A program made the position numbers and the translations under genes. Positions 46 through 63,468 of a DNA stretch of 64,000 bases are shown piece by piece. Origin of the DNA: Candidatus Omnitrophota bacterium (GTDB lineage: Bacteria > Omnitrophota > Gorgyraeia > B26-G9); contig JAHITY010000114.1 of assembly GCA_018817165.1 (NCBI GenBank), forward strand, positions 17,721-81,720, read 5' to 3'. Positions within the stretch are counted from its first letter, which is position 1, and each line of letters starts with the position of its first letter. The notes beneath the pieces were generated by a model. The model saw nothing but the letters and a program-made list of their open reading frames with translations. It had not been told where the DNA came from and ran no database searches.

Positions 46-2238
46 TTGACAGCTTATACAGACAATACTTATCCGCAGATCCAGAATACTGACAAAAAAA
101 TCAATGGTCGAATTTTTCAAATGCGCAGATTGAAAATTGATAGATTCCAGCCAGGAGTGTATGATTATTTTAACCTGGAGATTAATTTAAGACAAAATCA
201 GCAATCGCAAACCAATGCGGTTCAAGAGTACAAAACAAAGGTACCTTTAAAGTTTATCAAAGAGCAGGTTAGCAATAAGGGGCTGCTTGCGGTAATTAAG
301 AAAATCATTTCATATCTTAATCCCCGAAAACTCAGAGAATATTATTCAGATATAATCGGAGTTATTGATGGAAGCATGGCTTATAAAGGACCGTTTTGCG
401 CGCAAGTAGACCTTACTAATGATTGTAATAATGACTGCATTGGCTGCTGGTGCAATTCACCTTTATTAAAAGATAAGCAGATTAGTGAGCAGGTAAAACA
501 GCAGACATTGCCTTTAGAAGTGGTTAAAAAAACGATAAATCAACTTAAGAGTCTGGGCACAAAGGAGATATATTTTGCCGGAGGCGGAGAGCCGTTTATG
601 CATCCGCATATTATGGAAATTCTGAACCATGTTAAAGCGCTTGGTTTGCGTTGTTATATTAATACAAATTTTACTTTGGTAACTGAAGACATGGTAAAAC
701 AGCTGGTGGATATTGGTGTAGACAATCTAGTTGTCAGTATTTGGGCTGGAACAGCGAAAACATATCATCAAACTCATCCCAATAAATCTGAAGCAATGTT
801 TTATCAGCTAAAAGGAGTGCTTAAATTACTTAATTCGCTTAAGCATAAAAAACCACAGGTAAATGTTTATAATGTGATCTCAAATCTGAATTATAAAGAA
901 CCTGAGCAAATGGTTGATTTTGCTTTAGAATCTGGCTGTGATTCCCTGGAATTTACAGTTATTGATACAATTCCTGATGCGACAGATGCTTTGATGCTCA
1001 GTGATCAACAGAGAAAAGTAGTAATCGAAGCTTGTAATAAAATTAAACAGCGTTTGGAAACAGGGGATTTAAAAAATAAGATTGAGGTTTTACAGTTTGA
1101 GCAGTTTATCCGTCGGGTTGATAATTCTGATGCTAAAATCGCCCAATATGATAATGATATTTTAAACCAAATGCCTTGTTATATGGGCTGGCTGTTTGCC
1201 CGGATTTTGGCTGATGGCAATGTTAATTTTTGTCTAAAAGCGCATCGGATTCCTGTGGGCAATATTTATGCTCATGATTTTCTTCATATCTGGAATAACC
1301 GCAAACAGCAGGAATTTAGAAAGCGTGCAATGTCTGTGCCTAAAAAAGATGTATTTTTCTCCTTTATTGGCAATGACCCGGATGTAAAAGTCGGTTGTTT
1401 TAAAGGTTGTGACGATCTTGCGCGTAATATACATATGCACAAAAAGATCCAATCTTTAACGCGTTTGGAGTATAAATTATTAAGAGTAATTTTATACTGG
1501 ATAAAATTGAAAAATTATTTTAAAGGAAAAAACTTTTCTCAGGCAATAAAAAATAAAATTGTTCAAAGGAAAATACTTGATAAGAAAATCATCAGACAAG
1601 GGAAACTTAAGGCAGTTTATCAGTCTGAGGGCATAAAGCTATATTGGGCTGAGCAGGAGATTACCCAGAGCATTGGCTTGAATACATCAGTGTGTATCTT
1701 TGGGCTATGGTATGACTCGTCTAAAGCAAAGTGGGAAGTGTCTAAACACAATGATCATGAATTAGAACTGAAAAGTACTTGGAATAATATTCCGATTTCT
1801 CAAGTATGGAAAATTAAACTTAATAGCGATTGTTTACTCCAATGGGATATTGCTTTGATAGTTGATTCTAAAATAGAGATAGAGCAGACAAAATCAAGCA
1901 TTATGATTTCACCGCTTTATAAAAAATGGCAAATCAATAAAGAGTCTGGCAAATTCCCCAGTTCAATGAATTGGCAGCAGGCAGAGATCAATAGTACTGA
2001 CGCAAAACAAATTAAAGTTATGTCTGTTAAAACAGGAAACACTGATTTGCCGGAATTATTTTTTGATTTTTCAGAAAACAGTGATCTTGAGTTGAGACCG
2101 CAGATTCAGAACGCGGATAAGCTGATAAATTCTCGGATTATATCAGCACAGAATATAGAAGCAGATAGTGGCAGAATTTTTCTGCCAGGAGATGTGAATA
2201 ATTTTTGTTTAAAACTAAACATAAAAGGTAGTAAATGA
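46..2238 (+). CDS. Large radical SAM/SPASM-domain protein with a ~250-aa Trp-rich C-terminal extension of unknown function. The reading frame is open to the window start, so the 5' end may be truncated.
   Basis: Cx3Cx2C motif CNNDCIGC followed by GGGEPFMHP (SAM-binding); C-terminal Cys-rich SPASM-like region (CYMGW...FCLKAH...VGCFKGCDD); the track start is a TTG; there is no in-frame stop between position 1 and 46; ATGA overlap with the next gene. Confidence 0.7.
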   Translation: MTAYTDNTYPQIQNTDKKINGRIFQMRRLKIDRFQPGVYDYFNLEINLRQNQQSQTNAVQEYKTKVPLKFIKEQVSNKGLLAVIKKIISYLNPRKLREYYSDIIGVIDGSMAYKGPFCAQVDLTNDCNNDCIGCWCNSPLLKDKQISEQVKQQTLPLEVVKKTINQLKSLGTKEIYFAGGGEPFMHPHIMEILNHVKALGLRCYINTNFTLVTEDMVKQLVDIGVDNLVVSIWAGTAKTYHQTHPNKSEAMFYQLKGVLKLLNSLKHKKPQVNVYNVISNLNYKEPEQMVDFALESGCDSLEFTVIDTIPDATDALMLSDQQRKVVIEACNKIKQRLETGDLKNKIEVLQFEQFIRRVDNSDAKIAQYDNDILNQMPCYMGWLFARILADGNVNFCLKAHRIPVGNIYAHDFLHIWNNRKQQEFRKRAMSVPKKDVFFSFIGNDPDVKVGCFKGCDDLARNIHMHKKIQSLTRLEYKLLRVILYWIKLKNYFKGKNFSQAIKNKIVQRKILDKKIIRQGKLKAVYQSEGIKLYWAEQEITQSIGLNTSVCIFGLWYDSSKAKWEVSKHNDHELELKSTWNNIPISQVWKIKLNSDCLLQWDIALIVDSKIEIEQTKSSIMISPLYKKWQINKESGKFPSSMNWQQAEINSTDAKQIKVMSVKTGNTDLPELFFDFSENSDLELRPQIQNADKLINSRIISAQNIEADSGRIFLPGDVNNFCLKLNIKGSK

Positions 2239-3869
2239 GTAAAGTAATTTTAGTTAATTGTCCTCCTTGGGGGGTGGTGATGCCGCCTTTGGGAATTGCT
2301 TATTTGTCAGCATACTTAAAATTAAAAGGTGTTCCGGTAGATATTTTTGATTTAAATCTTGATCTGTATGAGCAGGCTGATTCAGCCCAGCAGTTGTTTT
2401 GGCAATTGGATGAAATAAATCGGATAAAACCCTGTGATATTGCTGAAAATATTTTTAAAGCTTTTGGAAATCGGATTGATGAATTTATTCAGAGTTTATC
2501 TGGATATACGATTATTGGGTTTTCCACAAATAATCTGATCAGTGCTATTTTTGCTGGATTTTTGGCGAAAAAAATCAAAGCCAAATATAAGGATAAAACT
2601 ATAATCCTTGGCGGGCCGGGAATATATCATAGTTGGGATAGAAAGACAGTAGCCAAAGAGAATATAGATTTTTTTATTATTGGTGAAGGCGAAGAGGCTT
2701 TGCTTAAATTTTTAAATGAATTTGAGATCAATCGATCTCCTGATTATTTGTGTTCTAAAGTTCCTGGGCTGCTTTACGCGCAGGAATCGTCAAATGTGGT
2801 TTATCTGCCTTGGCAGCCAGTAAAAGATTTAAACAGTTTAGCTTTTCCTACCTTTGAGGAATTTGATTTAAGTAAATACAATAGTAATAGTAAATATCAT
2901 CCTTTGCCCATGCTGATCAGCCGCGGCTGCATTAATCAATGCAGTTATTGCATTGACTGGTATATTTGTTCTGGTTTTCGCATGCGACGACCAAAGCTGA
3001 TTATTGAGGAAATGAAGTATCTCAAACAAAAATATAATATAAGCCATATTGAGTTTAATGATTTGCTTTGTAACGGCAATTTATATGGTTTGCATAAACT
3101 TTGTCAACAAATGCAGCAGGAAAATTTGAACCTTACTTGGATAAGCTATGCGGCAATAAGAAAAAACATGACTCAGGAACTGCTTAATGATATGAAAAAG
3201 GCAGGATGTAATTCCCTGTGTTATGGTATAGAAAGCGGATCAGATGCGGTTCTTGGCAAAATGAACAAGCATTACAACTCTGCTGATGCTAAGCAAGTAA
3301 TTGAAAAAACATTTAAAGCGGAAATTCAAGTGAGCCTGAATATAATAGTTGGATTTCCCGGAGAAACCGAAGCTGATTTTAAGCAGACAATTGATTTTCT
3401 TAAATCCAATAGTAAATATATTTCTCAAGTAACTAATGTTTCTTCTTTTGTGCTTATGCCTGGTTCTGATGTGGGAATTTATCCACAACGCTTTGGAGTG
3501 AAATTTCTTGATCCGCTCGATCCTGGCAAATGGACTGATGCAAATTGGTTGACTCAGGCAGAACGCAATCAGCGGGTGGGACGGATATGTGACTTGCTCA
3601 AGGAATTAAAGATTAAAAATCTGATTGTAAATTATCAGGATAAAAATGCTAAGGTTTGTAATATTAAAAATGAAATTCCACAGCAAATAACTGATAAGTC
3701 AGATGGAATTATTGATTTATCAGATTTGAAATCAAGAGGGTTCAAAAGAAGAAATAAAATACTTAAATTTGCTGTGCTTGGGATATTGCTTATCGCAAGC
3801 ATTATTATTGATTTTTATTTAAATGTTTTAAAAAAACTGCGGGGCTCAATTATTTTCCCCGGAAACTGA
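2235..3869 (+). CDS. B12-binding domain radical SAM protein (class B) with a C-terminal TM helix.
   Basis: N-terminal Rossmann-like B12-binding pattern (VILVNCPPWG...PPLGIAYLSAYLKLKGVPVDIFD); radical SAM motif SRGCINQCSYC; hydrophobic C-terminal helix. Confidence 0.8.
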   Translation: MSKVILVNCPPWGVVMPPLGIAYLSAYLKLKGVPVDIFDLNLDLYEQADSAQQLFWQLDEINRIKPCDIAENIFKAFGNRIDEFIQSLSGYTIIGFSTNNLISAIFAGFLAKKIKAKYKDKTIILGGPGIYHSWDRKTVAKENIDFFIIGEGEEALLKFLNEFEINRSPDYLCSKVPGLLYAQESSNVVYLPWQPVKDLNSLAFPTFEEFDLSKYNSNSKYHPLPMLISRGCINQCSYCIDWYICSGFRMRRPKLIIEEMKYLKQKYNISHIEFNDLLCNGNLYGLHKLCQQMQQENLNLTWISYAAIRKNMTQELLNDMKKAGCNSLCYGIESGSDAVLGKMNKHYNSADAKQVIEKTFKAEIQVSLNIIVGFPGETEADFKQTIDFLKSNSKYISQVTNVSSFVLMPGSDVGIYPQRFGVKFLDPLDPGKWTDANWLTQAERNQRVGRICDLLKELKIKNLIVNYQDKNAKVCNIKNEIPQQITDKSDGIIDLSDLKSRGFKRRNKILKFAVLGILLIASIIIDFYLNVLKKLRGSIIFPGN

Positions 3870-3891
3870 TTAGAATGCAGTGTATAGCGAA

Positions 3892-4038
3892 TAGTAGGGC
3901 CACGGCGTGACGTGGCCGATACTAATACAGTTATCAAAAATTGTAGGGGCCGGGCTTGCCCCGGCCCGGAATAATGTACAATTATATAAATAGGTGAAAT
4001 TATTAATAAGCGGGCGCAGGCAAGCAGCGCCCCTACTA
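3892..4038. repeat. GC-rich three-hairpin element bounded by the terminal inverted repeats TAGTAGGG...CCCCTACTA. Copy 1 of a family also seen at 52340 and 63312.
   Basis: Hairpins ggccacg-gcgtga-cgtggcc, gggccggg-cttgc-cccggccc and gggcgc-aggcaagca-gcgccc; ends tagtaggg / cccctacta are reverse complements of each other. Confidence 0.6.
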
Positions 4039-4181
4039 TAAAGGGCAGGAATAATTATTTAGGCGGGTTTGAAGCCTGATTTTGATAGGACTGGCAAAAT
4101 CAGAGATTCATCCTCGGAGTCCCGCAGGATGCGGGACGAGAATGAGCCAAAATGATTGATTCCGGACCGCCTTCGATAAAG
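4034..4181 (+). ncRNA. Conserved ~148-bp structured element (copy A). It could be a cis-regulatory leader or small RNA, or a repeat element. A near-identical copy lies at 17740..17886.
   Basis: About 96% identical direct repeat. Internal stem-loops gattttg-N11-caaaatc and ctcggagtcccgca-gga-tgcgggacgag. Both copies lie ~130 bp upstream of a GT1 glycosyltransferase start. Confidence 0.45.
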
Positions 4182-4312
4182 GTTGCATCAGCAGGAAAAT
4201 TTGTGTCAGCGTAAAATTTATCGATCATCTTGAGTATTGAGTAGAGCGTTTAGAGTTTGGAAATAGTAATTAGAAATTAGTAATTTATTTTCTGTTTTAT
4301 AAAGGGATTTTT

Positions 4313-5458
4313 ATGAAGATACTGATGATTCATCCTCATGATCTTTTTTCAAGAAAAGAACCTTGGACAATTAGAATTAAGAAAATTGCCCAAGAGTTTA
4401 AGAAAAAAGGGCATGAAATTAAGATAATTTATTTCCCTTTGGAATATCATACTCATCGGGATGGGTTTTCGATTGATGGTATTGAATATATACCTTTAAG
4501 CCGCAAACTGGGTATGGCCAATTATTATAAAAATATTCGCTATGTTTGTGCACAGGGAAAATGGGCGGATATTATCCATTTTCAGAAGTGCTTTTTTTAT
4601 GCGGCTTTGCCGGCTTTGCTTGCCGGGTTTGTTAATAATAAACCGGTTCATTATGACTGGGATGACTGGGAAATAAAGATATTTTATTACGAGGCTAAAC
4701 AGCCGCGGCTAGTCGGCGGTTTTCTTTGGGCCTTAGAAAGATATATTCCTAACCTTTGCGATACAGTATCGGTTTCCAGTCTGCGCTTAAAGCAGGAGTG
4801 CATTAGCTATGGCTTGGATCCTAATAAGATCGCCATGGCTCCGGTTGGTGCAGATTTGAACTTATTTCATCCGGATATTTCGCCAATTCGAATTAGGGAA
4901 AAATATAATCTGCAGGGGCCAATCATTAGCTATTTGGGACAATTGCATGGCGGGCAATATGCCGAACAGTTTATTCGCGCGGCAAAGATAATCACAAATC
5001 AATTAAAAGGAATAACTTTTTTTATTATCGGTGGCGGTTATCGCTTAGATGAATTAAAAACCTTAGCACGGGATATGGATTTGGATAAGCAGATTATATT
5101 TACTGGAGCGATCAGTCATCAGGAAACTCCTTTATATTTAGCGGCAACTGATATCGCAGTGGCTTGTTTTGAAAATAATCAGATTACTCAATGTAAAAGT
5201 CCGCTTAAAATCGCCGAGTATTTGGCCAGTGGTAAGCCGATTGTTGCCAGCGATGTAGGAGAAGTCAAGCGAATGCTCGGCGGGGCGGGAATTCTCACTT
5301 TGCCTGGAGATTCCGAAGCTTTAGCCCAAGGAATAAAAAAACTTCTAGATGATGAGCCTTTGCGTAAAAGATTAGCAATAAAAGCCCGTCAAAGAGCAGA
5401 GGATTTATATAATTGGCAAACAACCGCAGATAATTTATTAAGGATTTATGCTGTTTAA
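4313..5458 (+). CDS. Glycosyltransferase family 1 (GT4-like, GT-B fold).
   Basis: C-terminal GT1 signature region (IAEYLASGKPIVASDVGEV...); size ~380 aa. Confidence 0.75.
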   Translation: MKILMIHPHDLFSRKEPWTIRIKKIAQEFKKKGHEIKIIYFPLEYHTHRDGFSIDGIEYIPLSRKLGMANYYKNIRYVCAQGKWADIIHFQKCFFYAALPALLAGFVNNKPVHYDWDDWEIKIFYYEAKQPRLVGGFLWALERYIPNLCDTVSVSSLRLKQECISYGLDPNKIAMAPVGADLNLFHPDISPIRIREKYNLQGPIISYLGQLHGGQYAEQFIRAAKIITNQLKGITFFIIGGGYRLDELKTLARDMDLDKQIIFTGAISHQETPLYLAATDIAVACFENNQITQCKSPLKIAEYLASGKPIVASDVGEVKRMLGGAGILTLPGDSEALAQGIKKLLDDEPLRKRLAIKARQRAEDLYNWQTTADNLLRIYAV

Positions 5459-15036: not shown

Positions 15037-16276
15037 AATCTGCAGGGGAACGATTAATTTTACAAGCCCAATGATGATAAATTTCCTGGGGAATTTGGCT
15101 ATAAGCCGTAAGGCAGGTAATGGTCTAATTTTGGATTTTCAAAATCAGTTTGCCGACTATATTAATATTGATCATGCTATTGCTGTTTCTTGTGCAAAGA
15201 CAGCATTGAGTTTGGCATTGCAGGCTTTAGGAGCTAAAGCTGATGATCAGATTATTGTGCCTAGTTATACAGTGACAGAGGTAATTGATGTTATTATAGC
15301 TCAAGGGCTTAAGCCTGTTTTTATTGATATAAGTTTGTGCGATGGTAATATGATTCCTGAATTAATTGAACAAGAAATTACTAAAAGCACAAAATTTATT
15401 TTAATGACACATATGCATGGCAATCCATGTGATATAGATTCTATAATTATGCTGGCTGATAAGCATGGTATTGCGGTGATTGAAGATGCTGCTCAGGCAT
15501 GCGGGGCAGAGTATAAAGATAAAAAAATAGGCTGCTTTGGTAAGATTGCTTATTTTAGCTTTAATATGTTTAAAAATATTAATACATTAGGCGGATCAAT
15601 GCTGGTTACTAATGATTTAAAACTTGCTGATGAAATAAAAAAAATAAGCAGTCACTTTAAGCCAATTTCTAAAATAGAACTGATGAAAAGATTTTTTAAG
15701 GCAATGATCCTTGCTTCTGTTACAAAACCGCCTATATTTCCTTTATTGGTTTATCCTGTTTTAAAATTAATGGGAGTACAGAAGCATAAAAGTATAGATA
15801 AAAAGCTCAAAGTTAAATTATTGAGCAGAAGTAAATTAAAAAAAATTGATAGATTGTTTTCACCAGCACAAGCAGGATTAGGTTTATTACAGCTTAAAAA
15901 ATTGGATAAATTAAATCAGGATAAAATTAATAATGCATTGGTTTTAAATGAAAAGTTATCAACAGTCAAAGATATTGTAATCTGTAAATCTCAAACAGGG
16001 ATTAAGTGTATTTATTTAAACTATGTAATTATGGTTAAAAACCGCCAAGGTCTGATTGATTTCTTATTTGATAAGGGAATAGATATAAGCCCCGGATTTG
16101 TGCAGGCATGCGCTTATATTAGAGAATTTGAACCATTTGCCGCTGATTGTCCGAATAGTTTGGCTCTTGAGCAGGGTAATCTATATTTGCCTATATATCA
16201 TCCACTAAACAGTAAACATATGATTAAAATCGCAGCATTAATCGGGAAATATTATGAGCCGAAAACTAGAACTTAA
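15026..16276 (+). CDS. DegT/DnrJ/EryC1/StrS-family PLP-dependent sugar aminotransferase. Start moved to the ATG at 15026.
   Basis: DHAIAVSCAKTALSLAL..DDQIIVPSYTV...GIAVIEDAAQACGAEY...FSFNMFKNINTLGGSMLVTN (Lys-containing PLP region). The ATG at 15026 overlaps the upstream stop (ATGATAA arrangement), and the 14933 start in the track would overlap the upstream gene by ~100 nt. Confidence 0.75.
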   Translation: MINKICRGTINFTSPMMINFLGNLAISRKAGNGLILDFQNQFADYINIDHAIAVSCAKTALSLALQALGAKADDQIIVPSYTVTEVIDVIIAQGLKPVFIDISLCDGNMIPELIEQEITKSTKFILMTHMHGNPCDIDSIIMLADKHGIAVIEDAAQACGAEYKDKKIGCFGKIAYFSFNMFKNINTLGGSMLVTNDLKLADEIKKISSHFKPISKIELMKRFFKAMILASVTKPPIFPLLVYPVLKLMGVQKHKSIDKKLKVKLLSRSKLKKIDRLFSPAQAGLGLLQLKKLDKLNQDKINNALVLNEKLSTVKDIVICKSQTGIKCIYLNYVIMVKNRQGLIDFLFDKGIDISPGFVQACAYIREFEPFAADCPNSLALEQGNLYLPIYHPLNSKHMIKIAALIGKYYEPKTRT

Positions 16277-17678
16277 TCCTATTTACAGTATTTTATTAAA
16301 GAATCATTTAATTGTCGCAATATGTTTATTTATTGATGCTTTTTTAATAAGGTTTGCCTTTTTAATAAGTTCAGATAATATCTTTGGGCAGGCACCGATG
16401 CTGAATATTATGACTTCTTTGCATGTTTTAACTGATCAGGCTTTGCTTAATAATGTATATTATCAGCAGTTGCCATTTTTCTTGTATAGTATCGCTGGGG
16501 CAGTGAAATTAGGCTCTGAACAGATTCTAAGCCCCAGATTTTTAGTTGCCCTTATTTCTAGTCTTTCATTGATTCCTTATTATTATTTAGTAAAAAAAGT
16601 ATTTAATAGTAAAATTGCATTGTTTTCCGGATTGCTTTTATATAGTTATTATATGCATATTATTGTAAGCATTATTAGTATGCCTGATGCCATATGTATT
16701 GGTTTTTTATTTTTTTGTTTATGGATGTTATTTATTGATAAATATCTTATATCGGCAATATTCTGTCTGATTGCCTGCGGTTATAGTTATCTAGGATGGA
16801 TACTAGTTCCAGTTTTATTTTCATCTATTTTTTTAAAGAAACATAAAACTCTAAAACAAAATCTTTTTAATGGGATTTTATTTTTGAGCATAGCTTGTTT
16901 ATTGCCATTGATATGGACTCAGGTAATTGAGAACAATTATGGGCAAGCCTGGTTATGGTATAAGAATTTTCATAATCCTGATAGTGTGTATACTTTTTTA
17001 TTTCTAGCAGGAAGAAGTATGCAGGGAATATTAAGCGATTTATTTTTAAAGCCAGGATCAATAATATTTTGTCTTAGCTTTATTGGAGTGATTTTTGCTC
17101 CAAATAAAAAAGAGCGATATCCCTATATTTTTTGCATAACTGCAACAATATTAATCCTCAGTGTGCATGTTTTTCGCAAAGAGATATTGATTGTAGACCA
17201 GGGAATCTTATTTATTTGGGCATTGCTTATTCCTTATTTAATTTTTGGTTTATTCTTTGTTTTAAGAAAGTTAAGATTAAACCATAAAGTATACGGATTG
17301 ATTATAGTAAGTATTATATGTAGTGTTTCATTAGTAACTGGATTTTTTCAAAGACCAAAGATTCCTCAATCAGTCACGGAAGTAAGCTGGTGGCTTCAGG
17401 AAAATGCAGATGCTAATTCTTTGATTTATCTCCAAAAACAAGATAAAGGTTATCATAGCGCGATTGTTATGCAAAGCAAATTGCCGCAGAAAAATTTTAG
17501 TTTTTTGGAAGATAATAATTTGCAGAATATTGCGCATATGGATAAAAAACAGTATCTTATACTCCCGGTATCAGAGGTGGAATATATGGATTTAGAGCAA
17601 TGGGAGAGTAAAGATAAGCTTAAAGAATATTTAATATTTATGAAAAATAAAGAAGGCAGCAGGACACAAAGACACTAG
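16254..17678 (+). CDS. Polytopic membrane protein, probable GT-C-like glycosyltransferase.
   Basis: More than 10 hydrophobic helices, loosely similar in architecture to the 12126/13519 proteins; last gene of the operon. Confidence 0.4.
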   Translation: MSRKLELNPIYSILLKNHLIVAICLFIDAFLIRFAFLISSDNIFGQAPMLNIMTSLHVLTDQALLNNVYYQQLPFFLYSIAGAVKLGSEQILSPRFLVALISSLSLIPYYYLVKKVFNSKIALFSGLLLYSYYMHIIVSIISMPDAICIGFLFFCLWMLFIDKYLISAIFCLIACGYSYLGWILVPVLFSSIFLKKHKTLKQNLFNGILFLSIACLLPLIWTQVIENNYGQAWLWYKNFHNPDSVYTFLFLAGRSMQGILSDLFLKPGSIIFCLSFIGVIFAPNKKERYPYIFCITATILILSVHVFRKEILIVDQGILFIWALLIPYLIFGLFFVLRKLRLNHKVYGLIIVSIICSVSLVTGFFQRPKIPQSVTEVSWWLQENADANSLIYLQKQDKGYHSAIVMQSKLPQKNFSFLEDNNLQNIAHMDKKQYLILPVSEVEYMDLEQWESKDKLKEYLIFMKNKEGSRTQRH

Positions 17679-17739
17679 GGCTCAAGGATGAAAAGACGAA
17701 AAAGTAGCGGACACAAGGTTGCAAGCTAAAAGCGATAAA

Positions 17740-17886
17740 CTATAAAGGGCAGGAATAATTATTTAGGCGGGTTTGAAGCCTGATTTTGGTAGGACTGGCA
17801 AAATCAGAGATTCATCCTCGGAGTCCCGCACGATGCGGGACGAGAATGAGCCAAAATGATTGATTCCTGACAGCCTTCGATAAAGT
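17740..17886 (+). ncRNA. Copy B of the conserved ~148-bp structured element (see 4034..4181).
   Basis: Near-identical to 4034..4181; located 129 bp upstream of the GT1 gene at 18015. Confidence 0.45.
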
Positions 17887-18014
17887 GGTTATCAAAACTA
17901 AAACAGTTTGTAAAATTAATAAAGTTGAAAGTTTATAAAGTTTACAGGAATTAGGAATTAGAAAAAGGTAGAAACTAAACGCTAATCGCTATACGCTAAA
18001 AGCTGAACTATAAT

Positions 18015-19106
18015 ATGAAAATAATATTTATTACTCGAGAAAGTAAAGAAATGCCAGCAGTGAGAGTTCGCTGTTACGGGTTTGCCCGGTATCTAAATAA
18101 AGCAGGGATTGAAACAGAGATATTTTCTTTTGCGGATAATTTAGGGGCAAAAAGCGGTAAAGAAGAAGGGCAAATGTCTAGACTAGATAAACTTTTATAT
18201 AACTTAAAGGCGTTTAAATATCTTAAATCAAAAGATACTGTTTTAGTTTTACAGCGTTGTAATTATCACTCGCTTGCGCCGTTATTACTAAACTTGCTAT
18301 TTAAAAGAAAGCTTATTTTGGATTTAGATGATTGGGAAGCAAGGGAAAATATAGAATATCATTTTAATAAAATTCCTAAATCCATAGCATATGTGGCAAT
18401 GAGTTTTATTGCCAGGAGGAGTTGTTTGTGTATTGGCGCAAGCAAATTTTTAGTAAATTTTTTATCCCGGTATAATAAGAATTCAATTTATCTGCCCACA
18501 GGAGTGGATACAGAGATATTTAAGCCCAAAAAGCTGATGATTGAAAAAACTGACCTTGTTTTGTCCTGGATTGGGACTATCCATCGCCGGGATAATGTGG
18601 AAAATCTATGTTTTTTAATTGATTGTTTTATGATTCTAAGCCAGAAAAACTCGGGGATTAAATTGGAAATTATCGGTGCGGGGATTTATGATCAGGAAGT
18701 AAAACAATACATTGCCCAAGTAAACAGCAATTTGATTAAAATCAATGGGTGGATAGCGCCAGAACAAATTCCTGGATATCTTGATAATATAGATATTGGG
18801 GTTATGCCTTTGACTCAAAATACTAAATTCAACCTAGCGAAAAGTCCTACGCGGATGTTTGAGTATATGTCCATGGAAAAACCTTTTATTGCCAGTTGTT
18901 TGGGAGAGGCGCAAAGGGTTATTATCGATGGCCAAAATGGAATGTTGGCAATAACCCAGGATGATTTTGTTGAAAAATTGCAAATTCTGATCAAAGATAA
19001 GAAACTTAGACAGACTATGGGTAAAAAAGCGAGAAAAACAGTATTGGAAAAATACTCTTTGGAAAAAATCTCAAATGATTTGTTAACCTCAGTTAGGGGA
19101 ATATGA
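18015..19106 (+). CDS. Glycosyltransferase family 1.
   Basis: C-terminal GT1 region (FEYMSMEKPFIASCLGEAQRVIIDGQNGML); ~360 aa. Confidence 0.7.
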   Translation: MKIIFITRESKEMPAVRVRCYGFARYLNKAGIETEIFSFADNLGAKSGKEEGQMSRLDKLLYNLKAFKYLKSKDTVLVLQRCNYHSLAPLLLNLLFKRKLILDLDDWEARENIEYHFNKIPKSIAYVAMSFIARRSCLCIGASKFLVNFLSRYNKNSIYLPTGVDTEIFKPKKLMIEKTDLVLSWIGTIHRRDNVENLCFLIDCFMILSQKNSGIKLEIIGAGIYDQEVKQYIAQVNSNLIKINGWIAPEQIPGYLDNIDIGVMPLTQNTKFNLAKSPTRMFEYMSMEKPFIASCLGEAQRVIIDGQNGMLAITQDDFVEKLQILIKDKKLRQTMGKKARKTVLEKYSLEKISNDLLTSVRGI

Positions 19107-20569
19107 AAGTAGTTATTGCTAATTCAATTGGAATTGATAAAAACGGACATTATATAATTCATTCACCAAGCCGATGGTCTGAAGGCGTTAAAGAGAAATC
19201 GCACTGGTTTGCTTATTATCCTTGGGAACTTGCCTATCTGTCTAGTTTACTCAAAAGAGAAACTAATCATGAAGTAAAGCTTATTGATGGATGTTTGATG
19301 AAGCTTAATAAAAAAGATTACTCTGCGTTGATCAAAAATCTAAATCCGGATATTTTGATAATCGAAAGCGCTACGCGAATGATTGATGAAAATTTAGAGT
19401 TGGCTCTAGAGATTAAAAAATCATGCTTAAGTCGAGTTATTTTTGTTGGGCAGCATGCAAGTGCTTTTCCCCAGCAGCTTATTGACCAGGGGGTGGATAA
19501 TGTCTGTATTGGTGAATATGAGTTCACGGTTCTTGAATTGATTCAGAACTCTGATCAAGCACAGATATTAGGGCTTTATCCTAATAAGCGAAGAGACTTA
19601 CTTGAGATAAATTCCTTGCCTTGGCCAGAAGATGATGATGTCAGTCGGATAGATTATGCATGCCCCGGAGAACCCAGTTCTGAATTTAAGGAAATTCAAA
19701 TGTACGCGTCTCGCGGTTGTCCGGGTTCATGTAATTTCTGTGTAGCCAGGCATGTTTATTATAATTGTTCGAATTGGCGTAAGCGTAATATTGATGATAT
19801 TGTTAAAGAGATCGCCTATCTGAAAGAAAAATATCCGCAAATGGAGGGAGTTTTCTTTGATGAAGAAGTGCACAATGGCAATCGGGAATTTATTTTAGAA
19901 TTAAGCAAGGGGATTATAGCCGCCGGGCTGAATAATTTGCATTATGAGGCAATGTGTGATGTGCGCTTCTTAGATGAACAAGTGCTGCGGGCAATGAAAA
20001 ATGCCGGATATTATAAAATAAGAATTGGGATCGAGACGGCAAGTGAAAAAGTTATGCAGGCGATAAATAAGCCAATGGATTTAAACCATATTCAGAATAT
20101 ATTATTAACCGCTAAGAAGATCTGCTTAACCACATACGGAACATTTACTTTTGGCGCTTTTGGCTCGGATTATTCTGAAGATATTAAAACCATTAGGTTT
20201 ATGGAAACATTGATAAAACAGGATCTTTTAGATGGATTACAGCTTTCTATTTGTACTCCTCAGCCGGGAACCCCTTTTTATCAAACAGCCAAAGAGAATA
20301 ATTTATTGCGTGCGCAATCTGATTTTTCTGATTATGATGGGGGTAATTTTGCCATGGTAAGCTATCCAAACTACAATCATAAGCAAATAGAAAATATTAA
20401 ACAGCAAGCTTTGCTTGTCCGTGATCATTTATATCTGATGAAGAAAATTAGAGAACATAATCTTTTAAAATGGACACTAGCAATTCTCAGGCGTTACGGA
20501 TTGTGGGGATTTATTAGAAAAGCCTTTAGAAGATTTTTATTGGAAATAAAATTTTTAAACTTAAAATGA
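19103..20569 (+). CDS. B12-binding domain radical SAM protein.
   Basis: N-terminal B12-binding-like region (YPWELAYLSSLLKRETNHEVKLIDG); SRGCPGSCNFC radical SAM motif; ATGA overlap with the upstream GT1 gene. Confidence 0.8.
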   Translation: MKVVIANSIGIDKNGHYIIHSPSRWSEGVKEKSHWFAYYPWELAYLSSLLKRETNHEVKLIDGCLMKLNKKDYSALIKNLNPDILIIESATRMIDENLELALEIKKSCLSRVIFVGQHASAFPQQLIDQGVDNVCIGEYEFTVLELIQNSDQAQILGLYPNKRRDLLEINSLPWPEDDDVSRIDYACPGEPSSEFKEIQMYASRGCPGSCNFCVARHVYYNCSNWRKRNIDDIVKEIAYLKEKYPQMEGVFFDEEVHNGNREFILELSKGIIAAGLNNLHYEAMCDVRFLDEQVLRAMKNAGYYKIRIGIETASEKVMQAINKPMDLNHIQNILLTAKKICLTTYGTFTFGAFGSDYSEDIKTIRFMETLIKQDLLDGLQLSICTPQPGTPFYQTAKENNLLRAQSDFSDYDGGNFAMVSYPNYNHKQIENIKQQALLVRDHLYLMKKIREHNLLKWTLAILRRYGLWGFIRKAFRRFLLEIKFLNLK

Positions 20570-20761
20570 CACAAAAGCAGCGGATAGCGTATAGCGATTA
20601 GCGGTTAGGGAAAGTGTGATATCCTGAAATAGGTTGACAGAAAACAGAAGGATGAGAGACGATCGCTGCGCTAGGACGATAGAGAAAAAACGGAAACATT
20701 TTTTAATAGCTAATGAAGTAATATTGTACAGTTATTTCTTGTTGTGATTTAGGGATTATTT

Positions 20762-50668: not shown

Positions 50669-52342
50669 ATGAGTTACCTGATAATTTTCATGTTAGCGAT
50701 AAGAGCTTTTATCTGTGAGAAAACTTGGCCAACTGCGGGAATTTTTTTTGATATTTGTTTTTGTTTGTGTTTTTTACTCTATATTCTAATTGATCCTAAG
50801 CTGAGAGTAAGCAGGAAATACTTTATTTATCCGCTCATTTACTCTGGCCTTTTGCTCCTGAATACATTTTTTTCAGTAAATTCCTATAATAGTCAAAATG
50901 AAATAGTTAAATTATGGGTATACATGCTCATATTTTATTTTGTTTATTGGCAGAATCAAAAAAACCGCAGACTGCTTATAGGTTCAATATGCGCCATAAG
51001 TCTGTTTATAAGCTTGCGGGCAATTTATCAGTATGCTTTCGGACTAGAATATATTAAGCAGCATTATGCATATGCCCAGATTGTTGAGCAAGGGTTTTAT
51101 GCTTTAGAAATGCTCAAACAAAAAAGAGTTGTTTCCTGGTTTTTGTCCCCAAATCTGCTTGCTGGATATTTGGTGATGATCGCCCCTTTAGCGGGAGCGT
51201 ATGGGTTTGAGAGTTTTAAACAACAAAAAATAAACCAGAGTATATTTTTCACGCTTATTTTTATTTGCTCAGCCGTGGGTTTATATTTTACGGGTTCTTG
51301 GGGTGCTTATCTGGGGTTCGCGATAGCGATGCTATTTATTATATTAAATCCTTTGGGCAATAAAACTGCTTTAATTGAAAGTCGAAAAAAGAATAATAAG
51401 TTGATCCTCGGCGGAGTTTTTTTTCTGCTTATTTTAGCCGCTTTATTCAGCCAAAGAGCCAAATATTTTATTGACCTAGCAAATCCTCAGAACTCTTTGG
51501 TGCAGCGTTTGTATTATTCGCAGGCTGCCGTTAAGATGATAAAGGAAAATCCTTTGACCGGTATTGGCTTGGGTAATTTTGGACTTGTTTATCCTCAATT
51601 CAAGCAAATAAACGCCAATGAAACAATTTACGCGCATAATATTTTTCTGCAATTATGGGCGGAGCTGGGAACGATAATTTTTATTTGTTTTATATTTTTT
51701 GCGATCTATCTATTATCCCGTTTTTTAAAAAAATTAAGACAACAGCGGGAAGTTGGTTTGATCGCGGCCAGCCTTGCTTTTTTGGTTTATAATTTTTTTG
51801 ACTATAGTCTAATGATCACTCAAAGCGGTTATGTTTTTTTTATTGTCATTGCTTGTTTATTTAAACCGCAGGAGGATTCTTACCCAGAAAAAAATAATCG
51901 ATTTACCCCAGATAATTTTTTAAATAAAACAAGTTTTATTGTAATCTGCGGAGTAATGATTATGTTTTTAACTGCGGAGTATTGCTCTCTAAGATCATTA
52001 GATAAAGCTGATCAATTTTTAAAACAAGGGCAAACAGACAAAGCTTTGGTCCTGGCAAACACAGCTTTGAAATTTAGAGTAAATAATGACCAGATATATT
52101 ATTTTATCGCAGTATGTTATCAGCAAAAAGCAGGTAAATTATTTTCTCCTACAGCAGCTGCTTATTATTGCCAAGCAATACGCTTAAATCCAAAATATGC
52201 TTTTTATTATGCCTATCTTGGGGATTATTATTTTTCGCATAAACTTTATCCGCAGGCAAAAAAAGCTTATCAGCAGGCAATAAAACATTATCCGCATAAT
52301 AAAAAATTCAAAGAAATCTATAGCCAGATACAAGGTCAATAG
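50669..52342 (+). CDS. O-antigen ligase/polymerase (Wzy_C/WaaL-like) polytopic membrane protein fused to C-terminal TPR repeats.
   Basis: IYAHNIFLQLWAELGTIIF matches the Wzy_C HN..L....E.G motif within a multi-TM region; C-terminal AYYCQAIRLNPKYAFYYAYLGDYYFSHKLYPQAKKAYQQAIKHYP is TPR-like. Confidence 0.6.
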   Translation: MSYLIIFMLAIRAFICEKTWPTAGIFFDICFCLCFLLYILIDPKLRVSRKYFIYPLIYSGLLLLNTFFSVNSYNSQNEIVKLWVYMLIFYFVYWQNQKNRRLLIGSICAISLFISLRAIYQYAFGLEYIKQHYAYAQIVEQGFYALEMLKQKRVVSWFLSPNLLAGYLVMIAPLAGAYGFESFKQQKINQSIFFTLIFICSAVGLYFTGSWGAYLGFAIAMLFIILNPLGNKTALIESRKKNNKLILGGVFFLLILAALFSQRAKYFIDLANPQNSLVQRLYYSQAAVKMIKENPLTGIGLGNFGLVYPQFKQINANETIYAHNIFLQLWAELGTIIFICFIFFAIYLLSRFLKKLRQQREVGLIAASLAFLVYNFFDYSLMITQSGYVFFIVIACLFKPQEDSYPEKNNRFTPDNFLNKTSFIVICGVMIMFLTAEYCSLRSLDKADQFLKQGQTDKALVLANTALKFRVNNDQIYYFIAVCYQQKAGKLFSPTAAAYYCQAIRLNPKYAFYYAYLGDYYFSHKLYPQAKKAYQQAIKHYPHNKKFKEIYSQIQGQ

Positions 52343-52451
52343 TAGGGGCCGATGGCTGTCGGCCCGTGACAATACCGCGCGAAATTAAAATATAAAATAA
52401 AATTTGTATAATTTTTAAACTATAACGGGCGGCCAGCCAGCCGCCCCTACT
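52340..52451. repeat. Hairpin element with terminal inverted repeats TAGTAGGGG...CCCCTACT (copy 2). Its 3' hairpin plus T-run probably also acts as an intrinsic terminator.
   Basis: 5' hairpin ggccga-tggctg-tcggcc; 3' hairpin gggcggc-cagcca-gccgccc followed by cTACTTTTATTTTCTGCTTTTTTT; the TAG stop of the upstream gene lies inside the TIR. Confidence 0.55.
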
Positions 52452-52468
52452 TTTATTTTCTGCTTTTT
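52420..52468 (+). terminator. Rho-independent terminator candidate downstream of the glycan island.
   Basis: GC-rich 7-bp stem (gggcggc/gccgccc) with a 6-nt loop, followed by a T-rich tract. Confidence 0.5.
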
Positions 52469-52707
52469 TTAATCGCAATACGCAATACTCAATACGCAAT
52501 ACGTTTTTTGCTTTTACCCTTTTCCTAATCGCTAACCGTTATCCGCTGCTTTTTACCCCATACACTATCTTGTAGTCATGCACGACTTAACCCCCTGTAA
52601 ATAGTATAATTAAATATTTTTTAAAAAAGTTATGTTTTTTAGTTGACAGACCGTGAAAAATAAAGTATATTTAGTTATGTGGAGAAAAGTGGGGGGAAGT
52701 GGGGTCT

Positions 52708-56246: not shown

Positions 56247-56286
56247 CTGAAAACTGAATACAGAGACCGGAAAAACAGCGGGCAAA

Positions 56287-56407
56287 GGTTTAACGGTAAC
56301 GAAGCCCGTATCGGTAACGTAGAACGGTTAGGGTGAAAATAATAAATTTAAAGACGACAGCCCTTACCGTAAGACGAAACGGGCATCGTAACCCTGACCG
56401 TAACCTT
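56287..56407 (+). repeat. Intergenic ~120-bp repeat D1 (direct repeat partner at 57995..58118).
   Basis: Shared blocks agcgggYaaaggt...cccgtatcggtaaYgt...cgaaacgggcatcgtaacc...taacctt in both copies. Confidence 0.6.
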
Positions 56408-56444
56408 GTGACATTGTGTCATTGTAATATAATGGAGGAGTATT

Positions 56445-57923: not shown

Positions 57924-57994
57924 TAGTTTATGTTTTCAGTATTGCGTCGCGTGTCGTGCGTATTGAGTATAGAAAAAACAGAAGACAGAAAAAG

Positions 57995-58118
57995 AGCGGG
58001 TAAAGGTAAATGGTAATGAACCCCGTATCGGTAATGTTTAACGGTTACGGTTAAAAATTTTAAGCCGATAGACTTTACCCCCAAACGAAACGGGCATCGT
58101 AACCTTAACCATAACCTT
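57995..58118 (+). repeat. Intergenic repeat D2 (direct repeat of D1), itself flanked by ~35-bp imperfect inverted repeats (57935..57970 and 58125..58160).
   Basis: See D1. The flanking motifs agtattgcgtcgcgtgtcgtgcgtattgagtat and caatacgcacgacgtgatactcaatact are partial reverse complements of each other. Confidence 0.55.
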
Positions 58119-58171
58119 TTAGAGTAGCAATACGCACGACGTGATACTCAATACTAAATAGGGATTAATTA

Positions 58172-60665: not shown

Positions 60666-60834
60666 ACTTATGGCTGATAGTCAATAGTCAATGGAAGGCA
60701 AAAATTCTCTTTTAGCGGCGCTTTCGAACGTAATTTTGACAGGGATGTCAAAATAGAGAGAACGCGCGGCTGAGACTGCACGATGCAGGCTCAGGCTTAG
60801 CGAAAAGATGTGTTTTTGCCTTGGATAAAGGCAA

Positions 60835-62226: not shown

Positions 62227-63317
62227 ACTTAAAACAATTAAGAATAAATTTAGCAGCAATAACCCTGATTCTCGTGTGTGTGGGAATTGTGATGATTTAT
62301 AGTGCTAGCGCGATTTATGCCCATGAGAATCTGGGTGATAGTGCCTATTTTCTCAAGCGTCATTTACTCTATGTTTTAATTGGATTCCTTGGTTGTTTGC
62401 TAGTTATGAGTATTGATTACCGCTTTTTTAAAAAAGCCGCAAAACCTTTGATCATAATTTCCTTTGGCTTGCTGCTATTGGTCCTTATTCCTGGTATTGG
62501 GAAAGAGGTGGGAGGTGCGCGCCGCTGGTTTCGTTTTTTTGGCATAAGCTTTCAACCTTCAGAGTTTGCTAAATTTGCGATGATTGTTTACACTGCCGAA
62601 TTTTTAAGCCGCAAGAAATCAATGGTTACTTCTTTTTTTAAGGGTTTTCTTCCTGTTTTCATGGTTCTGGGCGCGATGTGCCTATTAGTCATTGTCCAAC
62701 CTGATTTAGGAACTGTTTTAGCAATGAGCAGCATTTGTTTTATTATGTTTTTTGTTGGCGGCGTACGTTTGGCGCATATAATTTCTTTTGTGCTTTTATC
62801 TTTGCCAGGTTTGTATTTTTTGGTATTTAGTGTGCCGTATCGACGGAGAAGAATTCTTGCTTTTATTGATCCTTGGGCTGATCCGCAAGGCAATGGATTT
62901 CAAATAATTCAATCATTGGTTGCTTTAGGTTCAGGAGGGGTTAATGGCGTGGGCTTAGGTCAAGGTAAGCAAAAACTATTATATTTGCCGGCAGCCTATA
63001 CGGACTTTATTTTTTCAATTATCGGCGAGGAGCTGGGGTTTATTGGCACTGCTTCCATTGTTATTTTATTTGCTTTGTTTTTAATCCAAGCCACAAAAAT
63101 ATGCTTAAAAGCCAGTGATTCATTTGGTCAGTATTTATCTTTTGGCCTTATTTCCTGTCTGGTTATTGAAGCAATTGTTAATATGGGAGTAGTTACCAGT
63201 CTTTTACCAACCAAGGGATTGCCGTTTCCTTTTATCAGCTATGGAGGCACATCCTTGGTTTTTAATATGGTTTATGTTGGCATAATCTTGAATGTCGGCA
63301 GGGTAAGGACTAAGTAG
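62223..63317 (+). CDS. ftsW: SEDS-family peptidoglycan glycosyltransferase FtsW.
   Basis: 10-TM SEDS pattern; GGARRWFRFFGISFQPSEFAKFA; GTG start overlapping the murD stop. Confidence 0.85.
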   Translation: MNLKQLRINLAAITLILVCVGIVMIYSASAIYAHENLGDSAYFLKRHLLYVLIGFLGCLLVMSIDYRFFKKAAKPLIIISFGLLLLVLIPGIGKEVGGARRWFRFFGISFQPSEFAKFAMIVYTAEFLSRKKSMVTSFFKGFLPVFMVLGAMCLLVIVQPDLGTVLAMSSICFIMFFVGGVRLAHIISFVLLSLPGLYFLVFSVPYRRRRILAFIDPWADPQGNGFQIIQSLVALGSGGVNGVGLGQGKQKLLYLPAAYTDFIFSIIGEELGFIGTASIVILFALFLIQATKICLKASDSFGQYLSFGLISCLVIEAIVNMGVVTSLLPTKGLPFPFISYGGTSLVFNMVYVGIILNVGRVRTK

Positions 63318-63451
63318 GGGCGGCTGGCTGGCCGCCCGGTATATTACGTTGAATTGAAATAATGTAATATGAATGATTGGTATGTCAATATATTGATTAA
63401 ATTTTATTTTTATATTATGATTAACGGGCCGATGGCCATCGGCCCCTACTA
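63312..63451. repeat. Hairpin element with terminal inverted repeats (copy 3), in inverted orientation relative to 52340..52451.
   Basis: 5' hairpin gggcggc-tggctg-gccgccc is the reverse complement of the 3' hairpin of copy 2. 3' hairpin gggccga-tggcca-tcggccc then CCCCTACTA. The ftsW TAG stop lies inside the left TIR. Confidence 0.55.
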
Positions 63452-63468
63452 TTGACCAGAAAGGTCTC

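Follow-up and report, generated by a model that had tools for sequence, protein, structure and literature searches.

An Intergenic Repeat of Omnitrophota and Nitrospirota With the Marks of a Mobile Element and a Conserved, Strand-Specific Three-Way Junction

Introduction

The ERIC/IRU sequences of enterobacteria, the Correia/NEMIS elements of Neisseria and bcr1 of the Bacillus cereus group are non-coding, multicopy, intergenic imperfect palindromes of 100-200 bp. Repeats of this type fold as RNA when they are co-transcribed and affect mRNA processing and stability, for example via RNase III or RNase E, and some of them have terminal inverted repeats (TIRs) and target duplications. They are confined to a genus or family, and it is their ends that are conserved. 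Here we describe a repeat that is present in two copies, A (4035-4181) and B (17739-17885), in a 64,000-nucleotide stretch of contig JAHITY010000114.1 from a Candidatus Omnitrophota bacterium (hereafter the window, to which all coordinates without another label refer). In contrast to the repeats listed above, one and the same internal junction is found here in both Omnitrophota and Nitrospirota between different TIRs, its helices covary extensively, and one of its hairpins, P3, is replaced wholesale between near-identical copies.

The nearest described RNA is the TwoAYGGAY motif (RF01731), in which GGA-containing loops (AYGGAY) cap two hairpins, a stem holds tandem G-A pairs and a further stem lies outside, and which is a predicted binder of the CsrA dimer (PMC4333381); it is also listed in PMC2864571. 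Many loops of the hairpin that we call P2a read AUGGAU or ACGGAU, the P3 loops are pentaloops (AGGAU or ACGAU), and a GAGC/GAGC box beside the closing helix P1 could form tandem G-A pairs. However, the Rfam model RF01731 gave no match at E ≤ 10 in positions 3850-4350, or at E ≤ 1 in 12 diverse members of the family. The junction sequences and the taxa differ as well, TwoAYGGAY being found in the gut, Clostridiales and gamma-proteobacteria and not reported as a mobile repeat.

The small RNAs (sRNAs) CsrB, RsmX, RsmY and RsmZ likewise present GGA in short hairpin loops, usually in pairs, as each half of the CsrA dimer binds one motif (PMC4333381). Those sRNAs are single-copy and promoter-driven, with a terminator and many GGA sites, whereas the element described here, a junction with two loops and a long closing helix, is multicopy and mobile, with no evident promoter or terminator and with CGA in place of GGA in some lineages. 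Carried on a transposable element in distant phyla, this RNA-like motif is abundant (more than 100 distinct members), covaries strongly and matches nothing in Rfam 15. Its interest lies in the fact that evolution kept the fold of the payload, not the ends of the transposon.

Results and Discussion

The Repeat Folds Into a Three-Way Junction

A repeat search of the window found copies A and B as a direct repeat of 147 nucleotides (nt) with 97% identity (family D1). The window holds only these two copies, and D1 is its sole long repeat of this kind; in a pairwise alignment, the identity between the copies begins and ends sharply at the repeat borders. Copy A, which serves as the reference (type A element), has a GC content of 46%, as compared with 34% for the window, and its forward strand folds at -51.3 kcal/mol (z = -2.4) in the minimum free energy prediction. 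In this fold a helix of 16-18 bp, P1, formed by positions 4048-4064 and 4146-4163, closes two hairpins.

The predicted anatomy of copy A can be read from 5' to 3' together with its variation in alignment A2, which comprises 55 non-redundant members (the window copy and 54 representatives clustered at 88% identity). The 5' arm of P1 (GGAATAATTATTT-A-GGC, 4048-4064) is followed by the junction residues GG and an unpaired N-U-U (4065-4069). GG (4065-4066) pairs with CC (4112-4113), and these junction G-C pairs are invariant in 55/55 and 54/55 members, while NUU is unpaired in every one. The next feature is a two-tier hairpin, P2/P2a (4070-4110), with an apical loop at 4085-4094 that contains GGA at 4088-4090. 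It is followed by CC-UCG-GAG, the P3 hairpin and CGA (4112-4139), the P3 stem pairing 4120-4125 with 4131-4136 around the loop AGGAU (4126-4130). The strand GAAUGA (4140-4145) then leads from P3 to the 3' arm of P1 (GCC-A-AAATGATT-G-ATTCC, 4146-4163), which includes a G-U wobble, a position that on the opposite strand would be mismatched as A-C. Copy B, also on the forward strand, has the anatomy of copy A shifted by +13704, with the P3 loop ACGAU (17830-17834) where copy A has AGGAU. Two stem-loops had already been named in a first-pass annotation of the window, gattttg/caaaatc and a bulged ctcggag-tcccgc...gcggga-cgag; both are present, as parts of this larger three-way junction.

Across the family the core is about 110 nt long and consists of the long closing helix P1, the two-tier P2/P2a arm and the hairpin P3, with loops that mostly contain GGA. 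The order of elements is P1, GG, NUU, P2/P2a (loop A-N-GGA-N), CC-UCG-GAG, P3, CGA-GAAUGA and P1', and the junction strands are GG...CCUCGGAG...CGAGAAUGA. The length of P1 ranges from 16 to 33 bp. When folded individually, all 55 representatives form the two-tier P2 arm; MAFFT misaligned its apical part, P2a, and that part was judged from the individual folds. The P2a apical loop is mostly A-N-GGA-N or A-GGA-N, with CGA or UGA sometimes replacing GGA. P3 carries a C-G-closed pentaloop, A-G/C-G-A-U, which is mostly AGGAU and is ACGAU in one abundant lineage.

The Family Is Found in Two Phyla and in Environmental Metagenomes

We scanned 185,579 species genomes using the P3 hairpin GGAGTCCCGC-NN-GATGCGGGAC as a pattern and found true copies in five metagenome-assembled genomes (MAGs), two of them from Omnitrophota and three from Nitrospirota. 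The two Omnitrophota MAGs hold five and three copies, respectively, that are 87-99% identical to the window copies. Among the Nitrospirota, MAG082 holds at least 13 copies, and the other carriers are a Thermodesulfovibrionales MAG and a MAG labelled Nitrospira japonica. The sequences of the outer helix and of the first hairpin are entirely different in the Nitrospirota copies, with their pairing kept, while CCUCGGAG and CGAGAAUGA are the same as in the window though absent from the genome-scan pattern. Likewise, GAAUGA, which the search pattern left unspecified, is identical in Omnitrophota and in three Nitrospirota lineages. Altogether, about 20 junction nucleotides are common to the phyla where the core was found.

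A metagenome scan was run with the pattern CCTCGGAG-N8-GA-N7-CGAGAATGA, in which the P3 stem was left free, and recovered at least 118 contigs with a family member. The family is therefore a large one, present in Omnitrophota, in Nitrospirota and in many environmental metagenome contigs. Among viral contigs we obtained one match, by chance, in GC-rich coding DNA without the hairpin.

The first-pass annotation had not been able to match the element to a known riboswitch. In the Rfam searches, the whole window (at the gathering threshold), positions 3850-4350 (E ≤ 10) and 12 diverse members (E ≤ 1) gave chance matches only, and no Rfam riboswitch was among them. A literature string search for the core sequences returned nothing relevant. 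With no Rfam 15 family and no description in the literature searched, the fold is apparently undescribed.

The P3 hairpin of the genome-scan pattern was also seen alone, without the junction, in four of the loci fetched for comparison (designated here by L and a number): L009 (5068-5089), L015 (3546-3567), L031 (5961-5982) and L032 (2827-2848). Their hosts are an Ignavibacteria MAG, an unclassified MAG, a Phycisphaerales MAG and a Desulfobacteraceae MAG, and the hairpin lies in apparently non-coding DNA. In L009 it adjoins a CATTGCGAG-type repeat.

Compensatory Change Maintains the Fold on One Strand

The RNAalifold consensus of alignment A2 is a three-way junction, and double changes with pairing kept occur in 24 of its 30 modelled pairs. 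All nine modelled pairs of P1 covary; double changes are found in 8/8 modelled pairs of P2 and in 5/7 of P3, where 96.4% of the cells are paired. Over the whole model, 87.7% of cells are in standard pairs, as compared with 58.6% after shuffling and 36.6-49.1% when partners are slid by 1-3 columns. The covariation score is 0.714, against 0.183 for shuffled alignments (none of 500 shuffles reached 0.714) and 0.09-0.19 for the slid-partner controls. The stems vary by compensated steps and the loops and junction strands stay fixed. The fold of the family is maintained by compensatory change, and the first-pass proposal of a real structured element on the forward strand is borne out by this abundant covariation.

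Within the helices G-U is in excess over A-C (78 versus 37, p about 2e-4), which identifies the strand as written, that is, the forward strand of the window, as the folding strand. Taken together, the compensated helix changes and the single folding strand point to selection on a single-stranded fold of defined polarity.

In the metagenome set, about 70 different sequences fill the 17 free or semi-free positions of the P3 region, and nearly all of them form perfect hairpins of 6-7 bp. One P3 position shows all four Watson-Crick pairs inside a single close lineage. Moreover, elements with at least 85% identity over the other 97 nt compared differ by a swap of the whole P3 stem, the Omnitrophota type having TCCCGC, CATTAC, CCTTAC or TATTAC. 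Cases of such swaps, with 5-6 positions changed per arm, are the Omnitrophota-type L107, L144 and L145 when set against the window, and L010 against L147. Conversely, an identical P3 hairpin was found in four very different P1/P2 backgrounds. The swaps could stem from recombination between elements or from selection on particular stems.

A covariance model, R1, was built from alignment A2. It scores copy A at 77.4 bits (match 4051-4159, E = 3.7e-22) and copy B at 73.3 bits (match 17755-17863), and it also gave a weak match (60703-60813, 17.3 bits, E = 0.006) to a third, divergent member of the family on the forward strand at 60695-60822, which we call type B. This member folds at -52.5 kcal/mol (z = -5.1) and keeps the three-way junction, with UUUUAGCGG...UAGCGAAAAG, the P2a loop AGGGAU and the P3 loop ACGAU, and is without CCUCGGAG and CGAGAAUGA. 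Relatives of type B are found in L022 (R1 match 1083-1193) and L044 (3292-3358, 95.5% identical). The type B member and its relatives indicate that the family extends beyond what the pattern scans capture.

Sister Lineages Carry Terminal Inverted Repeats and Target Duplications

The element is small (units of 147-400 bp), non-coding, multicopy, dispersed and intergenic. In a first metagenome lineage the unit is 193-195 bp long and is bounded by the TIR GTAACTATCCAGC...GCTGGATAGTTAC. Perfect 8-bp direct repeats abut its ends and differ between insertions, being GTAAAATC in L050 (5106-5300), ATTAGTTT in L085 (6806-7000), GGGAAAGC in L106 (4511-4703) and CATGGTTC in L122 (1301-1495). In a second metagenome lineage the unit is 206-208 bp long with the TIR CAGTAGTGTCCGG...CCGGACAGTAGTG, and the duplications are perfect 9-bp ones, ATAGCGGTA in L035 (4780-4985) and ATTTATCTT in L076 (4278-4485). 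The 13 near-identical copies of MAG082 have a unit of about 335-400 bp with the ends ..AAGTGTCCGG/CCGGACAC..; two of them show 5-bp matches (GGTCA, GATAC) at consistent boundaries, and the remaining copies give no clear duplication.

The family has the marks of a MITE (miniature inverted-repeat transposable element) that a transposase making staggered cuts mobilises in trans. The interior three-way junction is common to the phyla while the TIRs differ, so that the interior is more conserved than the ends. It is this conservation of the interior, not only of the ends, that makes the family an unusual MITE. In the first-pass annotation a regulatory leader or operator cassette had been preferred to a MITE; with TIRs and 8- and 9-bp duplications in the sister lineages, MITE is the better description.

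Copies of the window lineage have common flanking motifs, CGATAAA and others that are GGTTGCAAG-like. Since these are the same in several copies, they are not copy-specific target duplications. In L044, the counterpart of copy A, GGTTGCAAAG stands on both sides of a unit made up of a pair of repetitive extragenic palindromic (REP) sequences and the element. Locus L071 (9026-9194) contains 169 bp with the first-lineage TIR GTAACTATCCAGC and an unrelated interior with two other hairpins, and shows no clean target duplication.

The elements of L123 and L056 are near-identical except that the P2a hairpin is inverted between them (CACCTGGATGGTG versus CACCATCCAGGTG), L123 having the loop AUCCA instead of UGGAU. 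This inversion is a DNA-level hairpin flip.

Genomic Context of the Window Copies and of the Family

Both window copies are intergenic and lie on the forward strand, 131 nt (A) and 129 nt (B) upstream of GT1 glycosyltransferase genes. Copy A is flanked by a B12-binding radical S-adenosylmethionine (SAM) gene (2235-3869) and a GT1 gene (4313-5458), and copy B by a PMT_2-type glycosyltransferase gene (16254-17678) and a second GT1 gene (18015-19106). The first-pass annotation had correctly noted this duplication upstream of two GT1 genes that are not close paralogs, the GT1 proteins being 26% identical over 299 amino acids. The spacers between the element and the GT1 start codon are unrelated in sequence between the two copies. 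The first-pass annotation had also placed each copy at the 5' end of a long operon, which is not established; both copies sit within one long co-directional gene array, 13.7 kb apart and with many genes between them. The tandem motif AATTAG-N-AATTAG that had been pointed out in the spacers is present in both, yet it is not statistically unusual: with at most one mismatch there are four matches in comparison with 2.2 expected, and 18 of 100 shuffles reach four. It is one case of a habit of 7-nt micro-repeats in the intergenic gaps of the window.

The co-directional cluster around copies A and B (1-39500) is unusually large. According to Pfam, it encodes radical-SAM proteins (SPASM, B12-binding), PMT_2-type glycosyltransferases, GT1 and GT2 proteins, a carbamoyltransferase, a methyltransferase and a DegT aminotransferase. 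The paralogous radical-SAM genes at 10758, 24960 and 28575 have DNA segments in common (repeats D2 and D3).

When the window is compared with the loci of the Omnitrophota MAGs, the element, at 87-99% identity, is the only DNA in common. For the family as a whole we examined 143 pattern matches, of which 72 are fully flanked by open reading frames (ORFs) within a limit of 1.5 kb. The rest, mostly close to the end of a contig, lack an ORF within that distance on at least one side, apart from a few that overlap an ORF. About 40% of the matches have no flank on one side, which is typical of assembly-breaking repeats, and the two Logan contigs that carry the window GT1 genes each begin within the element. 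The element breaks assemblies, as many contigs stop within it.

Clustering of the 211 nearest-neighbour proteins gave 180 clusters and revealed no family that recurs. GT1 proteins occur three times among them, twice in the window and once in L022. A transposase, a reverse transcriptase or a TnpB/IscB-like gene was sought beside the element, and no recurrent neighbour family of this kind was found among the 211 proteins. The copies are many and their contexts random, with no positional bias toward gene starts, which is what the first-pass annotation had named as the signature of a pure repeat element.

Several contigs carry two or three copies on both strands, as detected with R1. Locus L104 has three copies within 3.7 kb, at 188-297 on the reverse strand and at 1436-1546 and 2727-2835 on the forward strand, and L152 has two clearly different members as neighbours, 414 bp apart and with the same orientation.

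A promoter scan of the forward strand found no promoter at copy A and one after copy B. A terminator scan found none after copy A or B, the only forward-strand match lying inside the element. A TTGCAA-N16-TATAAA box upstream of copy B and of some relatives is suggestive and was not relied on, as neither copy A nor other lineages have it. A small ORF over the core was rejected as a candidate, as it reads MRDENEPK in Omnitrophota and is a different, longer frame in Nitrospirota, and is not conserved.

A Putative Protein-Binding RNA Module on a Mobile Repeat

On balance, we lean towards reading the repeat as a non-autonomous MITE-type element whose payload, a strand-specific three-way junction of about 110 nt, is a protein-binding RNA module and not a metabolite sensor. 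The best explanation of the window copies is that they are insertions into intergenic spacers of a glycan/radical-SAM gene array, not selected as GT1 leaders. We infer that the folded molecule is RNA from the strand bias and from the mode of movement, because transposition that leaves TIRs and duplications has no single-stranded DNA stage. As copies A and B are in sense orientation in a co-directional array, they would be transcribed. The transcript, a long hairpin-closed junction, would present two similar loops, and the neighbouring junction arms would place these loops in an arrangement suiting a dimer. Most likely, the fold would serve a dimeric RNA-binding protein of the CsrA/RsmA kind as a clamp site or decoy. 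The processing or stability of the flanking cistrons could plausibly be affected in a secondary way, since P1 is a long helix of the kind cut by RNase III.

A specific CsrA-type partner for the fold is a tentative proposal, and we consider it possible rather than probable. GGA is found in both loops in most members, about 40 nt apart in the window copy. The P2a loops AUGGAU, AGGGAU and AAGGAU and the P3 sequence CAGGAUG resemble the CsrA site, which is a GGA in a hairpin loop (PMC4333381). In a cmscan search, a CsrB hairpin on P3 was the only bacterial near-match, and it was weak and local. The loops of the family would also fit the CsrA consensus, A(N)GGA / RUACARGGAUGU. Should the fold act as RNA, the family would be a bacterial mobile element that spreads a ready-made protein-binding or regulatory RNA module, and it could point to CsrA-type decoys beyond the gamma-proteobacteria, a question left open in PMC4333381.

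Several observations weigh against a protein-binding module of this kind, or against parts of the proposal. The metagenome pattern itself fixed CCUCGGAG, the loop GA and CGAGAAUGA, so that invariance there is partly a matter of ascertainment, and the conservation of these three is independently supported by the genome-scan matches only. In the window's own Omnitrophota lineage no clean TIR or duplication was resolved, the outer ends being ambiguous and only the long P1 inverted repeat being clear. When a transposase or parental element was sought in the fetched loci by means of the TIR, only the L071 sequence was found, a second MITE with other cargo. CGA replaces GGA in the loops of an abundant sub-lineage and in P3 of copy B, and this counts against CsrA because the canonical protein should not tolerate CGA. 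No U-run follows P1 among the family members with printed flanks; the element therefore does not qualify as an sRNA gene that stands alone and ends in an intrinsic terminator. Lastly, the flanking genes of the 72 fully flanked copies are both sense to the element in 28 cases, both antisense in 22, convergent in 11 and divergent in 11. With orientation close to random, roughly half of the copies would make the complementary RNA unless they had their own promoter, and no conserved promoter was shown.

A bolder version of the RNA reading would make the family a self-spreading RNA gene, that is, a MITE superfamily, active in at least Omnitrophota and Nitrospirota, with an RNA of about 110 nt that is functional in its own right. 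We are doubtful of it. The RNA might act on a dimeric protein, either CsrA-type or specific to the element, as a two-loop clamp or decoy, or it might form a new aptamer or ribozyme core. By transposing, the element would place a post-transcriptional control site in many operons, and the swapping of P3 stems would be a specificity determinant rather than drift.

Alternative Explanations

The alternative that survives best is a purely selfish MITE, in which the fold has no function as RNA and is a by-product of the palindrome or is used only in DNA-level steps, such as hairpin extrusion in replication or transposition. It accounts well for the TIRs and the 8- and 9-bp duplications, for the random orientation and gene context, for the lack of a promoter or terminator tied to the element, and for the inversion of P2a in L123 relative to L056, a DNA-level event. 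Yet a transposon that leaves duplications needs only its ends, and here the core is common across phyla while the TIRs differ. Nor does it account for stem changes that are compensated while loops and junction strands are fixed, and a double-stranded or cruciform role would not yield a two-to-one ratio of G-U over A-C. For these reasons we hold a purely selfish element to be unlikely.

A new small ribozyme or ligand aptamer on a mobile element, with GG, CCUCGGAG and CGAGAAUGA as its catalytic or binding core, appears improbable to us. The arrangement of about 20 cross-phylum junction nucleotides around freely covarying helices is what is seen in the junctions of hammerhead ribozymes and purine riboswitches, and small ribozymes in eukaryotes often ride on repeats, which we counted in favour of this idea. 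However, no Rfam ribozyme or riboswitch model matches, and the type B relative keeps the architecture without CCUCGGAG and CGAGAAUGA.

Among named candidates, the known self-cleaving ribozymes (hammerhead, twister, pistol, hatchet and hepatitis delta virus-like) gave no Rfam matches, and the junction is unlike the hammerhead core CUGANGA/GAAA. An integron attC site was also rejected: the P1 ends have no R''/R' cores (RYYYAAC / GTTRRRY), and many genes lie in the 13.7 kb between the copies. In a comparison by eye, none of the hammerhead, k-turn, T-loop and attC patterns fits the junction.

There is also a slim chance that the element moves as folded single-stranded DNA via an HUH/Y1 enzyme, as a derivative of the IS200/IS605 type or of the kind formed by REPs and their associated tyrosine transposases (REP/RAYT-like), with P2a and P3 as the recognised hairpins. 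Two similar hairpins on the same strand, with conserved loops, variable stems and a strand-specific pairing bias, would be expected of such an element; REP-like GTAG palindromes adjoin it in the window and in L044, and unrelated bacteria (L009, L015, L031 and L032) have the P3 hairpin by itself in DNA that looks non-coding. IS200/IS605 and REP elements are not known to have TIRs or to make target duplications, whereas six clean duplications abut the TIRs in our family, and the element is without the GTAG head of REPs.

The weakest alternative is the one first proposed for this locus, a cis-regulatory leader (riboswitch or attenuator) of GT1 operons, which we judge very improbable: the two window copies and the L022 copy are in sense orientation 100-145 nt upstream of GT1 genes and a three-way junction with a conserved centre looks aptamer-like, but this reading is largely refuted by context, given that GT1 is rare among neighbours that otherwise belong to many unrelated clusters in mixed orientations, that 22/72 fully flanked copies are antisense to both neighbours, that near-identical copies with TIRs and duplications recur within one genome, and that there is no expression platform, with no terminator after the copies, unrelated spacers and no Rfam riboswitch match. 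A tempting wrong annotation, that of a riboswitch for glycosyltransferase operons, is thereby removed.

Other Repeats in the Window

REP-like, GC-rich palindromes with a GTAG/CTAC head are arranged as inverted pairs at 3880-4036, 52334-52452 and 63312-63457 (for example GTAGGGGCCGGGCTTGCCCCGGCCC and GCGGGCGCAGGCAAGCAGCGCCCCTAC). Three such palindromes lie directly upstream of copy A. In L044 a REP pair is found where other copies carry CTAAAAGCGATAAAC, as if it had been inserted into the left flank of the element. The two distal clusters (52334-52452 and 63312-63457) are inverted repeats of each other, with 94-97% complementarity (I1 and I2).

A second, unrelated family of intergenic repeats is represented by 56285-56407 and 58002-58118 (D4 and D6), which are about 120 nt long, 80% identical and rich in CGGTAAC/CGTAAC. 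This family fills the gaps at 56247-56444 and 57924-58171, and a 31-nt inverted repeat (I7, 57935-57965/58128-58158) lies nearby.

Arrays of degenerate 7-8-nt units occupy intergenic positions 4260-4285, 17946-17961, 17975-18008, 20579-20608, 52474-52503 and 60677-60692. Their units include CTAAACG (x4.9), AGCGGAT (x4.3), CGCAATA (x4.3), GGCTAAT/GGCTGAT and ACAAGGTT/GCAAGGTC. They often stand directly after a stop codon or before a start codon, and the element is often embedded among them. Similar arrays were seen in L008, L012, L021, L044 and L107, and they seem to be a general feature of Omnitrophota-like genomes. Heptamers of the CTAAACG type also make up a 31-nt inverted repeat with 87% complementarity (I4, 17975-18005 and 20578-20608), which brackets exactly a two-gene unit composed of the second GT1 gene (18015-19106) and a B12-binding radical-SAM gene (19103-20569).

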